Part shown: in pieces, positions 3,122 through 64,000 of the stretch
Layout: each line of letters starts with the position of its first letter
How positions within the stretch are numbered: position 1 is the stretch's first letter
IMG/VR virus record: IMGVR_UViG_3300037755_000308
Location: 3,061-67,060 of that record
Strand: one strand, 5' to 3'
DNA from: a virus
Lineage: Duplodnaviria; Caudoviricetes
DNA length: 64,000 nt
Position numbers and translations under genes: made by a program
The notes under the pieces: model-generated
What the model was told of the DNA's origin: nothing
The model's input: the letters and a program-made list of their open reading frames with translations, nothing else
The model's database searches: none

Positions 3122-3172
3122 CCTGTCTTCTAATGTTAACAGTAACAGTAACAAACAGATGGTGTAGTAAAG

Positions 3173-3934
3173 ATGTCTACCAGCAGGGGTTTACACAGTC
3201 GAGTTGATTCTGTTAAAAGAAATGTGTCGGAGTGGACCGAGCGTGGCATCGTATTTCTTGAGCGAGGTGGCTTCGAGAACATATGCTACGTGGCTGTGCT
3301 TGTATTATACCTGATGGCATTATGGTATTTACTTCCCAAACCCGATGGTGGCTTGTCCAGTCGATATTTTGCTGAGCAACAGCAGGAGCAGCAGGACCAA
3401 CAACAACAACCAATTAAGTATACAAGCGAACCTGAGGTTGAAACCACGGTCGAAGTTGTTGATAGTGACCTTCAGCTGCCACCCGAGATCCAAGAGCACT
3501 ACATCTTTGCTATGTCATCTGTTGCTAAGGCAGATGAGATAGAGTGTGTATATAATGCTGCCAGCCGATATTTGAACTGTCCAGAGGTGCCCTTAATAGT
3601 TAACAAGAGTCCTATTAACTGGGATTGGGATTCAGAAGAGGTGGAAACTCGAGCAACATTAATACACCTGGCAGACATATACAGAAACAAGGCTAATATG
3701 AAGAGGCACTTCTCAACAGAGGAGAGCCTTCTAATAGACCCGGCTGTACTGCTTGAGGAGGAGATTGAGGACACCACAATCACTGTGGGTGATAAGGTAT
3801 ATCTAGTTGCATCAGCACTTCCAGTTCGCAATCCATTTGTCGATCCTAAAGACAAATCTAGAATACAGCATAAGCTAACATGTAAGAAGACAAGGTGGCT
3901 CACCTTGAAAGCAAAGCGGGCTGCTGGCTGTTAA
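3173..3934 (+). CDS. Hypothetical membrane-anchored protein
   Basis: 253 aa ORF with a hydrophobic segment (YVAVLVLYLMALWYLL) followed by a Q-rich linker. Confidence 0.6.
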   Translation: MSTSRGLHSRVDSVKRNVSEWTERGIVFLERGGFENICYVAVLVLYLMALWYLLPKPDGGLSSRYFAEQQQEQQDQQQQPIKYTSEPEVETTVEVVDSDLQLPPEIQEHYIFAMSSVAKADEIECVYNAASRYLNCPEVPLIVNKSPINWDWDSEEVETRATLIHLADIYRNKANMKRHFSTEESLLIDPAVLLEEEIEDTTITVGDKVYLVASALPVRNPFVDPKDKSRIQHKLTCKKTRWLTLKAKRAAGC

Positions 3935-24688: not shown

Positions 24689-27190
24689 TTGGGAGTTAGA
24701 CACGTGTCCAAGCCTATTGATATTCATAGTATTCTGTCACCTGTTCGTGGTAAGGGGTTAAGTCCCAATGTCACTATGGCACATGCGTGCTTAAGCTGTG
24801 TGTTTAAGTCACGAACATGTGGATCTAGTGGACCGTCTGACTCCCCCTTTGTTATTGTCGGGGAGAGCCCTGGCAAGAAAGAAGCTATCTATGGGATGCC
24901 ATTCATTGGCGAAAGTGGAGGCTTGTTAAAGAAGCAGTTGCAGGCAGCTGGGTATAATGCAGACCATCCTGAGCCGTACATTACAAACGCTGTTAAGTGC
25001 TCTCCTGGTGATAAGAAAGATCAGACAGCTCTTAAACACGCTTGTCAAGCTTGTCGTGGTAATCTGATTGCTGAGATAGCTGCACATCCACGATCAGTTA
25101 TCTTAGCGTTGGGCGCGGCAGCTATATGGTCGCTGACAGGTGACTACAGTCTTAAGATCACACAAGTGCGTGGACAAGTGTTTCCATCTCCACTAGCCTC
25201 GCACGGTATTGTAGCTTCAGTACACCCAGCATTCCTTCTACGTGGTGGTGGGTCTATTAACAAGTTCAAAAGTGACATAGGACTTGCTGCAGAAGCAATC
25301 CAGAACATAAAAAGACCCAGATACAAAAATAGCACGGAGACTATATTACATACTGTGGACGATTTTATGCAAGTCATAGATCGACTTACATATGTAGTAT
25401 GGTGGTACAAGGTGCTAGGCCTTAGCCCAGTTCCGATAGCAACAGACATTGAGACAACTGGCTTCTCTGCACTAGAGAACCTTATACTTTGCTTGGCTTT
25501 CACTTGGGAGGATGAACATAGCTACGTTATACCAGAAGAGGCATTCGAGGACGAAGAATACTTGGCAGCGATGAAAGACTTCTTAGAGTGGAGCTCTGAT
25601 GAGGTCATCTTCATTTGGCATAATGGTAAGTTCGATATTCAGTTCTTCTGGGCAATAGACATTGACGCTCGTGTTGATGAAGACCTAATGCTCCTGTCAT
25701 ATACCTTAGATGAGAACAAAGGACTTCATGACCTTGAGCAAGTTAGCAATGACGCTATTAAAGCACCTAACTGGAAGGCTATGCTTGATGAACACAAACC
25801 AGATAAGAATGCAAGTTACGATGTAATACCTCGTCCCATTCTGTATAAGTATGCAGGAAAGGATGTTGCTGCTACTTTACAAAGCTGGCGTGTGTTACAT
25901 CCAAGAGTGAATGGTGATCTTAATTCACGTACAGCCTATTATGAGTTAATGGTTGATGCTTCACATCTGCTTGGGCGTATTGAGACTGTCGGTATTAAAG
26001 TTGATCAAGAACAAGTCAAATACAATATGGCTAGGCTCGATAAGGAGATGACTGAGCTTCAACGCGACTTTGATGCCTACACAATGGAGCTGTGTGGTCA
26101 GACCTTTAATATGCAGTCCCCACCACAGATTACAAGATTGTTATTTGACATACTTAGTTTGGAAGCACCTAAAGGGGAAAGATCAACTGGCAAAGACATC
26201 TTAGCCACGATGGAACACAAGGCCATAGACTTCGTCCTTGCCTATAGAAGACTGGCTAAGAAGAAGGGCACATATGTTAAAGTCTTACTTCCATGGCGGA
26301 GAGAGAAGAACCGTATCATTCGTGGACATGTAAAACGTGATGGTCGTGTACATGCATCATACTTAATTCATGGTACTGTTACTGGAAGATTGTCTTCTCG
26401 CAAGCCTAATATGCAGAACCAACCTCGTGATCCTGAGATCAGAAGTCAGTTCTGTTCTGAAGATGGTCACGTCTTAATAGAGGTTGATCTTAACCAAGCA
26501 GAATTGCGTGTGCTTGCCGAGCTGTCTCGTGACCCAGGACTAATGGAGATCTATCTTGATCCAGACCATCCAGGCCTCCATCATGAAGTTAGTATCACAC
26601 TGTTTGGCAGTGGATATAACAAAGATGAAAAGGTCAGAGCTAAAGCAGTTAACTTCGGAATTGTCTATGGACGCACTGGAGGTTCCATCGCAGAAGAATT
26701 CAATATGCCAAAGGCGGAAGGGGAACGTTGGGTATCAGGCTGGGCTAGCAGATTCCCACATGCCTGGGACTATATTCAGAAGTGTCGTGAGGCCCCTCTC
26801 AAGGGTAGAACTCTGATTACCAACTTTGGGCGTAAACGTCGATTCGGAATTGTTACAAGAGCCAACGCACATAGTGTACAAAATGAAGCTAGCAACTTTC
26901 CTTTTCAAAGTATTGCATCTGATGTAACTTTGAAAAGCACTGGACGAGTTGTCAGAGATCGTAGATATAAGTGTGTACCTGTCAATCTTATACATGATGC
27001 AGGATTGCACGAGGTTATCAACGATCTAGACATTATCGACTATCAAGTAGCACTCATTCAGTACTATATGGCTAAGGAAGCTCCCCTATGGGGATTGAGT
27101 ACTGTACCCTTTACTACCGAGGCAGAGCTTGGCACACACTGGGGAAAGTCGACTAAGTACAAAGTCAAAGGTCAATACACTTTTAATTAG
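24689..27190 (+). CDS. polA: Family A DNA polymerase with an N-terminal family-4 uracil-DNA-glycosylase-like domain and a 3'-5' exonuclease domain
   Basis: UDG: CLSC, VGESPGKKE...PFIGESG, TNAVKC and HPAFLLR. Exonuclease: DIETTG, HNGKFD and YAGKD. Polymerase: TGRLSS, DLNQAELR, RAKAVNFGIVYG and IHD. Confidence 0.93.
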   Translation: MGVRHVSKPIDIHSILSPVRGKGLSPNVTMAHACLSCVFKSRTCGSSGPSDSPFVIVGESPGKKEAIYGMPFIGESGGLLKKQLQAAGYNADHPEPYITNAVKCSPGDKKDQTALKHACQACRGNLIAEIAAHPRSVILALGAAAIWSLTGDYSLKITQVRGQVFPSPLASHGIVASVHPAFLLRGGGSINKFKSDIGLAAEAIQNIKRPRYKNSTETILHTVDDFMQVIDRLTYVVWWYKVLGLSPVPIATDIETTGFSALENLILCLAFTWEDEHSYVIPEEAFEDEEYLAAMKDFLEWSSDEVIFIWHNGKFDIQFFWAIDIDARVDEDLMLLSYTLDENKGLHDLEQVSNDAIKAPNWKAMLDEHKPDKNASYDVIPRPILYKYAGKDVAATLQSWRVLHPRVNGDLNSRTAYYELMVDASHLLGRIETVGIKVDQEQVKYNMARLDKEMTELQRDFDAYTMELCGQTFNMQSPPQITRLLFDILSLEAPKGERSTGKDILATMEHKAIDFVLAYRRLAKKKGTYVKVLLPWRREKNRIIRGHVKRDGRVHASYLIHGTVTGRLSSRKPNMQNQPRDPEIRSQFCSEDGHVLIEVDLNQAELRVLAELSRDPGLMEIYLDPDHPGLHHEVSITLFGSGYNKDEKVRAKAVNFGIVYGRTGGSIAEEFNMPKAEGERWVSGWASRFPHAWDYIQKCREAPLKGRTLITNFGRKRRFGIVTRANAHSVQNEASNFPFQSIASDVTLKSTGRVVRDRRYKCVPVNLIHDAGLHEVINDLDIIDYQVALIQYYMAKEAPLWGLSTVPFTTEAELGTHWGKSTKYKVKGQYTFN

Positions 27191-58491: not shown

Positions 58492-59820
58492 TCATTGCTT
58501 TTTGCCTTTTAGTAATCGTACAGCGAGCTCCTGGGCAAGATTTGCTGTATCTTCATCATCCAGAGCTTCAAGTCCAGTAACTTCCCCACGGTCTCGTGTA
58601 TTAGCGATAGTGCGAAGATGTTCCTCGATAGGAGTGGAAGCATTGCTGTCGCTGGACCCAGGAAGGTGAGCATCAGCGGGCGCCGCTGCAGGAAGTCCAA
58701 CGCTAACGCGCTGCAAGTGTAGGAGCTCTTTCAAGACCTTGACAGTCTCACCAGGATCAAGTGAGTCGAGATCATCCGCACTGAAATGATCAAAGCGGCT
58801 CATCACACGCTCGACCATCTTATTGACGCGGGTGAAGGTCCGTTCGTCTAGATGGATCGCCCGTACTGCTCGGATCTTTCGTACAGCTGCCTCTCCAACA
58901 ATGTCGAAGGCGCTGGCACGAGCTTTCCAGAAATACAGAATGAATAGCGTTCGAAGACGATCATTTGTAGCGCGCATCAACTGCTCGTGCTCGACGTCTG
59001 AGATGATCGCTGGTAGACCACCCTTAGCTGTAGACAGAGCTGCTGCCTCATCCTCGTGGGCTTGGGTACGAGAGTGGCCGCTACCCTTCTCAAGGTGAGC
59101 TACGGATGGCATTGGAGGTCGCTTCTGTTTAATGCCACTGCCACTGCCACGCTTCTGGTTTTGAGGCTTTGACACCATGTCGATAAAGATGTTACCAACA
59201 TCATACTCGCCGCCACTACCATTTGGACGTGTTGGCACAGCGATATGGTCTACGTCTGTGTGTACGCCTGTAGCTGTAGCTGCGCCTGTAGCTGCGTCTA
59301 CGTGCATGGCCGATTGAGCATCGTCGCGGTCGCGTACTTGCTCCCGCTCACGCTCACGCACCTGCTCTCGCTCCGCTGCAACTAGTCGAACACGCTCCTC
59401 AATACTCTCTCGGACAAGGGATTTGGCCAGCAGTTGAGTAGAACGATATCCGTAGGTAGACACCATCTCAAGATATCGCTGGAACAGCATGAACTCTGAG
59501 CTACCTTCATGGTCCAACCTCTCCCAGAAAAGGCTGCCTGAATTTGTAACAGGAAAGCCATCACTGTAGTGGATGTCAACGCGCGCAGCATCAATGTGTG
59601 CCCACTGTAGCTCTCGCGTCATACTCTCAAGATGGTGCGGAATCATATCAGCACGCACAATGAACTCTGGCATTCCAAAGTCATTCTTGGGGATCTGCTC
59701 TTGAATCGCTATCATATTGCTAAGGAGCAACTCTTCTCGACTTGCTACTTGTGGACCACCGTTCATCTTTTTACTAGGCCTTGCTTTTCTACCACTACTT
59801 ACTTGCTGACTCTCGCACAC
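58492..59820 (-). CDS. Terminase small subunit-like protein with large low-complexity insertions
   Basis: FWERLDHEGSSEF.LFQRYL.M...RS...LA...W..RA.AFD pattern. Directly upstream of terL. Start uncertain. Confidence 0.65.
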   Translation of the reverse strand: MCESQQVSSGRKARPSKKMNGGPQVASREELLLSNMIAIQEQIPKNDFGMPEFIVRADMIPHHLESMTRELQWAHIDAARVDIHYSDGFPVTNSGSLFWERLDHEGSSEFMLFQRYLEMVSTYGYRSTQLLAKSLVRESIEERVRLVAAEREQVREREREQVRDRDDAQSAMHVDAATGAATATGVHTDVDHIAVPTRPNGSGGEYDVGNIFIDMVSKPQNQKRGSGSGIKQKRPPMPSVAHLEKGSGHSRTQAHEDEAAALSTAKGGLPAIISDVEHEQLMRATNDRLRTLFILYFWKARASAFDIVGEAAVRKIRAVRAIHLDERTFTRVNKMVERVMSRFDHFSADDLDSLDPGETVKVLKELLHLQRVSVGLPAAAPADAHLPGSSDSNASTPIEEHLRTIANTRDRGEVTGLEALDDEDTANLAQELAVRLLKGKKQ

Positions 59821-59838
59821 TTTACACTTTATATTCCC

Positions 59839-59867
59839 ATTATAACGGGTATTTATTGACTAATCAA
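59839..59867 (-). promoter_or_regulatory. sigma70-like promoter for the terminase/late operon
   Basis: On the - strand, TTGATT-17 bp-TATAAT. Confidence 0.7.
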
Positions 59868-59979
59868 CTGTTATTTTTAGCCCATATAAGCAGTTCTATG
59901 AGGGAAATGAGCTTGACTATGTGTGTTATTTGTGAAATTTTTGGTAAAAATTTTTCCAATTGCCTTGATACTGACTAAT

Positions 59980-60046
59980 CTGGTTTTTGAAAATATAGTA
60001 TATTTTTTGTGCAGCCCTGGTTTTTTGAAAATATAGTATATTTTTT
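59980..60046. repeat. Two direct copies of a ~29-bp unit, each containing the palindrome AAAATATA-G-TATATTTT
   Basis: CTGGTTTTTGAAAATATAGTATATTTTTT at 59980-60008 and CTGGTTTTTTGAAAATATAGTATATTTTTT at 60017-60046. Confidence 0.9.
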
Positions 60047-60154
60047 CGAGTGACCTTAGCGCGCAGATCTAAGATCTTAGATCCTCAACCGAAAATTACT
60101 AAGATCTTAGATGCTAAGATCTTAGATTAGTAACAAAATTTAATAAAAAAGTTC

Positions 60155-60183
60155 GTGATATATCTTAGATGTTGTGATATAAT
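60155..60183 (+). promoter_or_regulatory. Extended -10 promoter
   Basis: TG-A-TATAAT at 60175-60183, flanked by the palindromes. Confidence 0.6.
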
Positions 60184-60228
60184 TTAAGTGTAGGAAAAAT
60201 CCTACATGTCAAAGATAGGAAATCTAAG

Positions 60229-60480
60229 ATGTTAGACCGAAAGAACGTAACACAGGACATGGTATCTAAGATGTTAGACCTAACGACCAAAAGTACGGTC
60301 ATCCGGTACTTAACCCGGGTAGGGTTTAGCAGGTCTGAAATCGCTAAGATGTTAGATATAAGATATCAACATGTACGAAATGTCCTGACACAAGAATGTA
60401 AGATCAAAGATCTTGAATCTGATATGTCAGATCTAGAATCTAAGATCTTAGACGATGACCAGTTAGATCTTAACATCTAA
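60229..60480 (+). CDS. Small HTH-like DNA-binding protein (paralogue 2)
   Basis: TKSTVIRYLTRVGFSRSEIAKMLDIRYQHVRNVL. RBS-like GATAGGA. Confidence 0.75.
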   Translation: MLDRKNVTQDMVSKMLDLTTKSTVIRYLTRVGFSRSEIAKMLDIRYQHVRNVLTQECKIKDLESDMSDLESKILDDDQLDLNI

Positions 60481-60744
60481 GATCTTACGGGTGGGGCGTT
60501 AGGTCGGATGACCTAACGTCCTATCTTTAGCCCGGGCGGTAAGATCTTAGATCTTAGCATGTCATATCTTAGATCTCATATCTTAGATCTAAGATCTAAC
60601 CAGATCAGTGCGGTCCTGTCCAAATTGGAGCATGCACTAGCCCCCCTACATGGGACTTTTTCAACAGTAGTGAGGACCTACTTACAAGACGTACTACGAA
60701 AATAAGACCAGGTAGAATCTTATAGTCGTACTAGCATTTTGACG

Positions 60745-60774
60745 TTGTGACCTCTAGGGACCTTGCGCTATAAT
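60745..60774 (+). promoter_or_regulatory. sigma70-like promoter
   Basis: TTGTGA-18 bp-TATAAT with GGACCTT in the spacer, upstream of the 60824 gene. Confidence 0.55.
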
Positions 60775-60823
60775 ATTTTTATAAGTTCAGGAATCAACCT
60801 GTGCTTATGTAGGAGTAGGTAGT

Positions 60824-61129
60824 ATGACACTGTTGAACATCCCGGTGCTTGCGTCCACGTCAGAGCAGTGCGACCATGACTACGACGTCATGTTTGCGTC
60901 CAAGGTTAGCAACCTGCTCAGGAACATTGGCTTTGCACTTACCACGGTTAATATTGCCAGGGTAAGGAACATATTGATCAAACGGTACGAGACCCTGTAC
61001 GGTAAGTCCAATGTTACAGTCTGGCGGTTGTGCCAGCTGACGGCCGAAGAATTGTTGAACCTGGCAGCGCAGTCACCTTACCGGGAAGACATGTTAGCAC
61101 AGTTGTACGTAAGCGACACGGTTCACTAG
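60824..61129 (+). CDS. Hypothetical protein
   Basis: 101 aa ORF with RBS AGGAG. Confidence 0.6.
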   Translation: MTLLNIPVLASTSEQCDHDYDVMFASKVSNLLRNIGFALTTVNIARVRNILIKRYETLYGKSNVTVWRLCQLTAEELLNLAAQSPYREDMLAQLYVSDTVH

Positions 61130-62612: not shown

Positions 62613-62656
62613 TCCGCTTGGTAGCTTGACTGAACTGATCTGACATCTTAGAACTT

Positions 62657-63401: not shown

Positions 63402-64000
63402 TGGTAGATAAGAAGACAGTAGCAAACATGAGCATACGGTTAGCTATGTAGAGCGACACAATGCAATAGGAGGTAGGCGACAGCACAGCAGATGACGATG
63501 GGTAGGCGACGGCATATGCGGGCATCATAATGCGCGGGCCACTATAGAGCGGTCCTCATATCCAGGTGCGATCGGCGCACTCGATGATTTTATAGGCTGG
63601 CAGATGTGGATGTGGCCACGATTCTGCGGCAACGCGGTTGGTGCTGGCGAGATCGTTAGTCGCTCTTGGCTCGAGCTTGGGTGATATAAGCGGAGACAAT
63701 ACGCACGATCCCGGTATATGGAGATCAAAACCTACATGAAATACCAAATCCAAATCCAAAACCAAATCCAAAACTAGAGCGAAAAATGAGCGAAAAAAGC
63801 GTAAAATCCGATGAAATAAGTTGTGGCGAGTGCGGAGATGAATGGAGCATGAAGTTACAGGATCATTCCTAATGAAATTTCGCCATCCATTTCGCACTTT
63901 TCATGTTAACTCGTTGATATCATTCATTTCTGGTTGTTCGATGGATACTTCGGGAAAATCTCTATATATATATATAATCAATAATATTTGACATTTGGTC

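Follow-up and report, generated by a model that had tools for sequence, protein, structure and literature searches.

A 7-bp-phased palindrome array written around and in frame through a small HTH gene in a group of ~67-kb siphoviruses

About 15-18 elements of one palindromic word are packed into 535 bp around and inside a small HTH gene of a siphovirus genome. The array is neither an artefact nor a product of chance, since the same word and layout are found in three diverged relatives and the layout is kept in more distant ones. The window analyzed here is a stretch of 64,000 nucleotides, bases 3061-67060 of a 67,060-bp IMG/VR virus record which is labelled linear there. Within it the array pinpoints the chief control region of ~67-kb siphoviruses that form an uncharacterised group. 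The best explanation is that the elements are cooperative operators for a dimer of the encoded HTH protein, which would serve both autorepression and a nucleoprotein switch between late and early genes; this is a tentative reading, held with somewhat less than even confidence. We infer that a protein binds the array, that the HTH protein is the binder, and that repression is the effect. For the HTH protein as the candidate binder, taken by itself, the chances are slightly better than even.

The underlying unit of the array is a word phased at 7 bp with the core ATCTWAGAT, and its paired form is CTAAGATCTTAG. This 9-bp palindrome also stands alone, at 60162 and 60566, and overlapping copies 7 bp apart compose both the 12-mer and the 18-bp perfect palindrome of site 1 (Table 1). 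The longest palindromic form in the array reaches 18-20 bp. The phasing can be measured: at lag 7, identity reaches 0.63 for the downstream cluster and 0.51 for the part encoding the tail of the HTH protein, against 95% shuffle maxima of 0.46 and 0.43, respectively. Moreover, two double sites with a centre spacing of 15 bp are opposed across the HTH gene (60099-60125 and 60462-60488) and are 96% complementary.

Counting confirmed that the word belongs to this locus. With up to one mismatch allowed, CTAAGATCTTAG was found 10 times, every copy within 60069-60557 of the window, where 0.27 would be expected; none of 100 shuffles reached 10. At up to two mismatches, 13 of the 17 matches in the window fall in 60069-60600. 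Of the 15 copies of the half-site ATCTTAGA in the window, 14 are within 60068-60595. Its sole copy outside the array (62640-62652) lies 30 bp past the stop codon of a paralogous 160-aa HTH gene, before the terminator. Across the whole record, the 12-mer (with C or G at the centre) is confined to the array, as are all 19 occurrences of the 9-mers and the 10-mer core, and 14 of 45 AGATCT copies lie inside it. A sequence-only reading of this DNA had placed four perfect copies, three CTAAGATGTTAG variants and at least two one-mismatch copies here and had noticed the 12-mer nowhere else. All of these positions are correct, a further one-mismatch copy was found at 60546, and the count over 67,060 bp likewise finds array copies only.

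Table 1. Features of the control region (window coordinates unless a relative is named)
Feature	Position	Strand	Remark
TerL gene	58234-56678	-	clear assignment
TerS-position gene, 442 aa	59820-58492	-	assigned by position
Near-consensus sigma70-type promoter of leftward operon, TTGATT-17-TATAAT	59867-59839	-	conserved in five lineages (alignment A8)
A-tract/T-tract near-palindrome, local copy of TACCAAAAAT-type element	59943-59957		also in L062, L155, MaInes, L006, L007, L023
Pair of identical AT-rich 25-bp direct repeats at a distance of 38 bp, each with a 17-bp palindrome	59984-60046		repeat families D6, I23; within the lowest-GC stretch of the genome
A/T-tract repeats, window and relatives	window 59943-60046; L155 5290-5440; L062 1310-1375; L302 3790-3880; L305 3720-3800; L303 1-90		
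Conserved box CCTTAGCG just 5' of first palindrome	60054-60061	+	in window, L062, L302, L155; degenerate in L305 (A8)
Site 1, 18-bp perfect palindrome enclosing 12-mer 60069-60080	60066-60083		position kept in L062, L302, L155
Conserved non-palindromic box CCGAAAATTA between sites 1 and 2	60089-60098	+	invariant GAAAATTA in five lineages (A8)
Double site, two perfect 12-mers, centres 15 bp apart	60099-60125		inverted partner 60462-60488
HTH gene promoter, GTGATA-17-TGnTATAAT	60155-60183	+	ATCTTAGAT (60162-60170) in spacer
Variant site enclosing start codon ATG 60229	60224-60235	+	sequence, motif match
83-aa HTH gene, first early gene	60229-60480	+	in-frame sites 60266, 60344, 60440
One-mismatch site enclosing stop codon TAA 60478-60480	60477-60488	+	sequence, motif match
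Terminator-like hairpin 3' of HTH gene, 9-bp stem, 4-nt loop	60497-60518	+	same place in L062, L302, L155
Downstream cluster, overlapping 7-bp-phased copies including recurring unit CTCATATCTTAGAT	60539-60600		conserved in L062, L302, L155
Next early promoter, for 101-aa gene 60824-61129	60745-60774	+	~145 bp beyond array
Perfect 12-mer copies	60069, 60099, 60114, 60440		
CTAAGATGTTAG variant copies	60224, 60266, 60344		
One-mismatch copies	60477, 60539, 60546		
Partial in-gene copies	60399-60413, 60427-60436, 60462-60472		

The record is a closed circular assembly of ~66.9 kb. Its bases 1-168 (L064 1-168) repeat window 63833-64000 save for a one-base indel in an A-run, which rules out the contig ends as physical termini; as a 168-bp assembly overlap they are uninformative on the termini of the virion. 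Rightward genes run from ~60.2 kb across the junction to ~33.5 kb and leftward structural genes from 59.8 kb down to ~33.6 kb. The two blocks meet at the array, the only place on the map where genes diverge. Among isolates, the Brevundimonas siphophages MaInes and StAshley come closest, with a TerL identity of 37%. A search of the complete genome for a CbiA-type ParA, ParB_N, a tyrosine integrase and a resolvase found none of them, and the phage therefore looks virulent.

The closest homologue of the HTH protein (P0002, 66% identity) sits on L062/L063. A second relative, L155, was found by a 14-mer scan and a third, L302, via a homologue of the protein at the TerS position; bulk 14-mer scans of viral and metagenome contigs otherwise gave mostly single chance matches, with the array only in L155. 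L062, L302 and L155 come from other samples and independent assemblies and share the word, the synteny and the order of elements with the window. Their TerS-position proteins are 37-43% identical to that of the window, and this protein and the HTH protein are the only genes common to all four fragments. In L062 and L302, one extra small gene is followed by a third site cluster, and the sites reach 1.2 kb from the TerS-position gene; the homologue of the 101-aa gene comes after the last site cluster in L062. The start codons of L155 and L302 likewise lie inside motif copies, and the stop codon of L302 inside a half-site.

Aligned array segments are ~69-75% identical, which is at least as conserved as the neighboring gene (64%, L062). 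With the scoring unchanged, no alignment was obtained for the spacer 3' of the array. The array is therefore under selection. The sequence-only reading had raised the possibility of an assembly artefact. An artefact, or an expansion of short repeats with no function, is very improbable: overlapping 7-bp units could spread by slippage, but the same array stands in four independent assemblies, the positions of its sites are kept while the flanking spacer diverges, and those within a conserved gene stay in frame.

In more distant relatives, including the Brevundimonas phage MaInes, the layout is kept while the palindromes differ. Related palindromes are found at the HTH genes of three lineages, AAGATCTT in the window, AAGTACTT in L023 and ATGATCAT in L007. 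In L023 the variant palindrome GGAAGTACTTAC lies upstream of the HTH gene and twice in frame inside it (2656-2670 and 2916-2962), and in L007 ATGATCAT is found upstream of the gene (2860-2910), with at least five copies of GACTAGTC downstream of it after a hairpin (3340-3470). L305 carries GGACATATATGTCC on either side of a tail-less HTH gene (3140-3220 and 3590-3660). MaInes (L301, ON529866; 5999-6640) keeps the divergent pair of HTH (MAINES_00460) and TerS-position (MAINES_00470) genes with three ACTGTAT-type repeats between them. Being cultivated, this phage offers an experimental handle on the architecture.

The coding part of the array was examined by synonymous resampling, in which the protein sequence was fixed and codons were redrawn 3000 times from the genome's own codon usage. 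Three 12-mers at up to one mismatch lie fully inside the HTH gene of the window against 0.10 expected, a number reached in none of the 3000 resamples. For AGATCT the gene has four copies against 0.6 expected (fraction of resamples 0.0007), and the HTH genes of L062 and L155 also have four, against ~0.65 (fraction ~0.002-0.003). The control relatives L006 and L007, which are without the array, have no in-gene copies; gene 2, an insertion in L062 and L302, is free of the seven-mers, of which every HTH gene has 3-6. The in-gene copies are thus selected at synonymous sites, beyond the needs of the protein. The earlier proposal of a dual-coded array of palindromic sites for a dimeric protein is supported in its core by confinement to the locus, conservation in diverged relatives and this in-gene excess, which at synonymous positions extends to L062 and L155. 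Its details also hold: the ATG at 60229 lies inside the copy at 60224, and the in-gene copies are read in frame as S-K-M-L-D, A-K-M-L-D and S-K-I-L-D. A-K-M-L-D is a conserved motif of the HTH family, and this copy is therefore in part a by-product of the protein. The N-terminal and tail copies fall in parts of the protein unique to the array-bearing clade.

The HTH family is an orphan, with hundreds of metagenomic members and no Pfam family of its own. A fold model of the 83-aa protein (pLDDT 79) predicts helices at residues 9-18, 21-31 and 35-42 and a tail helix at 55-76, in which the heptads have hydrophobic residues at 6 of 9 a/d positions. Based on this model, the protein may form a dimer via its C-terminal heptad helix. 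The CENP-B_N profile matches it marginally (22.2 bits, cut-off 21.2), other HTH models fall below their cut-offs, and its atlas neighbors are HTH_23-like with scores below 0.9. A profile search of PDB sequences returned designed repeat proteins only, and Foldseek with the model gave nothing at E <= 0.001. The HTH domains of ParB, KorB and Spo0J were rejected as structural kin, with VIA-align Z scores of 3.4-3.9 lying within noise (best Z overall 4.8). A motif search of the literature returned primers with BglII sites and nothing else.

In the favored explanation, dimers of the HTH protein would bind the sites cooperatively, with the C-terminal heptad helix supplying dimerization. From the site in the spacer of its own sigma70-type promoter the protein would shut off that promoter (negative autoregulation), and further sites cover the 5' UTR, start codon, coding sequence and stop codon. 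Site clusters on either side of the gene could be bridged by looping, and the protein would fold a control region of ~0.6 kb into a repressive or architectural complex that could act as an early/late switch between the leftward structural and rightward early genes. Such a looped cooperative complex agrees with clusters that precede every early promoter and flank the gene. The spacer site and the start-codon copies suggest that their binder, whatever it is, represses the HTH gene. ATCTTAGAT lies immediately 3' of the -35 hexamer in the 17-bp spacer in the window, L062 and L302 but not in L155, and the spacers of L062 and L302 start identically with TATCTTAGAT. The autoregulation proposed in the sequence-only reading therefore fits three of the four phages. 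A small hairpin lies between this promoter and the site that contains the ATG.

Several observations favor operators for the HTH protein. The motif is enriched at and confined to the locus that encodes the protein in cis, the same word and layout are kept in three diverged relatives, and related palindromes surround and run in frame through HTH genes elsewhere (L023 and L007). The in-gene copies exceed what the protein sequences would give, with the controls free of copies; a putative dimerization helix is modelled; and a virulent phage with no integrase, ParA or ParB found would need an early regulator. Other observations speak against it. The model gives no helix to IRYQHVRNVL, the best-conserved segment of the HTH family, and no PDB structure matches the fold of the protein significantly. 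This segment is unchanged in relatives with other palindromes or none (GGACATATATGTCC in L305, GACTAGTC in L007 and ATACTGTAT-type repeats in MaInes), whereas the DNA word is kept in L155 although its HTH has diverged much further (31% identity, with the segment altered); protein and motif thus do not visibly covary. Moreover, ~18 sites are many for an operator, and L155 is without the promoter-overlapping site.

Control of the late genes by the array is speculative, because the leftward promoter is near-consensus and ~200 bp away from the nearest site. This promoter is of the sigma70 type though the structural operon is presumed to be late. A precedent for a switch of this kind is phage phi29, where several sites for the small dimers p4 and p6 lie between divergent early and late promoters of a virulent phage and form a nucleoprotein complex. 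The phi29 proteins have no sequence or fold relation to the HTH protein, and their sites are few and not written into the regulator gene.

Between the leftward promoter and the first palindrome, every relative, MaInes included, has two or three A-tract/T-tract palindromic repeats of the TACCAAAAAT or CCAAAAATTTTTGG type (Table 1), and a similar pair of AT-rich repeats is present in L303. These repeats form a second class of conserved, putatively protein-bound elements. The boxes CCTTAGCG and CCGAAAATTA flank site 1 and are kept even where the palindromes differ (L305, L007 and L023); CCGAAAATTA itself is also found in L007 and in a variant form in L023.

The main rival reading is a replication origin, which we consider unlikely but still a serious contender. 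The palindromes would be initiator sites equivalent to iterons and the repeats at 59943-60046 the unwinding element, with the HTH protein or an unlinked replication protein loading the replisome; the site in the promoter spacer would then give the autoregulation usual for initiators. One such candidate is the 802-aa early protein (L064 3000-5408), which matches DUF3854 alone. Consistent with an origin, the stretch 59916-60216 has by far the lowest GC content of the genome (28.7%, the next lowest being 35%), and A/T-tract repeats adjoin the sites in all relatives. This low-GC stretch with sites inside a gene is a signature of phage origins and counts to that extent against operators. The array also stands at the divergence of the two transcription arms, and no recognizable initiator, helicase loader or origin was found elsewhere in the genome. 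In P1 (incC-repA-incA) and F (incB-repE-incC), a small gene is flanked by arrays, of which the upstream one overlaps the gene's promoter and mediates autoregulation, and the present layout recalls them. In these replicons, Rep_3-type initiators bind iterons that are direct repeats of 19-22 bp, and DnaA boxes are close by. The array shows none of this: the HTH protein gave only generic HTH matches and none to a replisome-organiser or Rep family, PF04492 (Phage_rep_O) is absent from the genome, and DnaA boxes at up to one mismatch are absent from 59,800-60,800. The nearest box (59178) is ~0.9 kb from the first site, and window-wide their counts are at chance level.

The closest design to in-frame sites is ori-lambda, where repeated sites lie in frame inside gene O of lambdoid phages and add residues to its product, with an AT-rich tract adjoining (PMC7466680). 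Both cases share sites of a DNA-binding protein in frame in a gene beside an AT-rich tract, although the binder is putative here. O is a replisome organiser of ~300 aa with 4-6 iterons of ~18 bp, all inside the gene. In contrast, the array has an 83-aa product of no initiator family, and its repeats are 7-bp-phased palindromes rather than iterons of 17-22 bp, most of them outside the gene on both sides. The third cluster behind the extra gene of L062 and L302 would be odd for a compact origin, and the cumulative GC skew is confounded by the direction of transcription.

A packaging site of the pac or cosB type is an improbable alternative. Here, the TerS-position protein would bind the palindromes, cutting or bending would take place at the conserved boxes, and packaging would run leftward into the structural operon. 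In all relatives the array does directly precede the genes for the TerS-position protein and TerL, where cos and pac are usually found, and the motif is common to the clade with the most alike TerS-position proteins; the contig ends, as a mere assembly overlap, do not argue against it. At lambda cosB (gpNu1) and SPP1 pac (G1P), repeated sites and bent AT-rich DNA are found just upstream of terS, and specificity varies among relatives. The combination of lineage-specific palindromes and lineage-conserved boxes parallels cosB and cosN of lambdoid phages. However, the cosB and pac sites are few and within ~100-270 bp of terS or inside it, whereas the sites of the array are 250-780 bp from the TerS-position gene (1.2 kb in L062 and L302) and run through a separate divergent gene, its promoter and past it. 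The L305 TerS-position protein is as close to that of the window as the L062 protein (42-43%), yet L305 has a different palindrome. Furthermore, the sequence-only reading had placed the array between a late terminase operon and the early genes; the position and TerL stand, while the identity of TerS is weak. The 442-aa protein has a single weak PHROG TerS match (E 4e-4), no Pfam or NCBIfam match and no fold match at E <= 0.001. Its model shows an N-terminal alpha/beta domain, predicted with confidence, and long helices, and no fold like that of TerS was found. The protein also contains a low-complexity insert of ~90 residues (~179-270) that is missing from relatives. The published paper on Brevundimonas phages is without termini or packaging data.

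It was also considered that the sites are bound by a different protein of the phage or host with its gene elsewhere, such as an omega- or ParR-type centromere protein or a methylation-sensitive GATC-binding factor, with the HTH gene merely lying inside the array. We regard this as quite improbable. The failure of the HTH segment to covary with the motif would agree with it, as would the 17 GATC sites in ~540 bp of array. The 7-bp repeat clusters over promoters resemble the parS heptads of pSM19035, where the omega repressor/ParB binds cooperatively to 7-bp heptads at three promoters, its own included, and the same array is both operator and higher-order complex (PMC9499535). Shared features are a very small protein, dimeric here by prediction, 7-bp units in both orientations and clusters at promoters. 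Omega has a ribbon-helix-helix fold and a ParA as its partner, whereas here an HTH protein, in-gene copies and a virulent-looking phage with no ParA are found. A parS-like centromere, also among the functions proposed earlier, is unlikely, because no CbiA-type ParA, ParB_N, integrase or resolvase was found in the complete genome. A Dam or restriction reading of GATC and AGATCT was rejected: genome-wide, GATC is not depleted (383 against 330 Markov-expected), no D12 or N6/N4 methyltransferase was found in the genome, and the in-gene variants are without GATC. Variation of the motif among related phages would also be unexpected for a host factor.

Both arrays written into the gene of their binder and small repressors that act on multi-site operators have been described before. 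Particular here are the orphan HTH family, the agreement of the 7-bp phase with a heptad tail, sites that enclose the start and stop codons, and an architecture kept across lineages while the word changes. The orphan family and its DNA word make a short, testable pairing. Should the array instead turn out to be an origin or a pac site, this phage group would have its missing signal for replication or packaging.

The tail-coding DNA consists of three 21-bp units (repeat family D3), and as 7 bp times three is seven codons, the phase of the DNA coincides with the heptad of the protein. This is a clear case of a DNA element that dictates part of a protein sequence, and it calls for caution in reading conservation and repeats in small phage proteins. 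A further, rather doubtful proposal is that the array predates the protein, which would in part be a translation of it: the 7-bp phase of the word, read in frame, would have given a heptad peptide (K-I-x-D-L-E-S type) which would now be a coiled-coil tail dimerizing the HTH protein on the palindromes that encode it, and occupancy of the sites with start and stop codons would gate expression. L155 has a similar-looking peptide at the N-terminus of its protein rather than in the tail, and in L023 the core AAGTACTT of its own palindrome occurs twice in frame, read as QEVLTT. These two cases suggest that conversion of a cis element into protein was repeated in this phage group.

Two further features were seen away from the array. 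In L305, five 10-bp direct repeats of the TTCCGGATGT type abut the promoter. In the window, a family A DNA polymerase (24689-27190) carries an N-terminal domain of the UDG superfamily.
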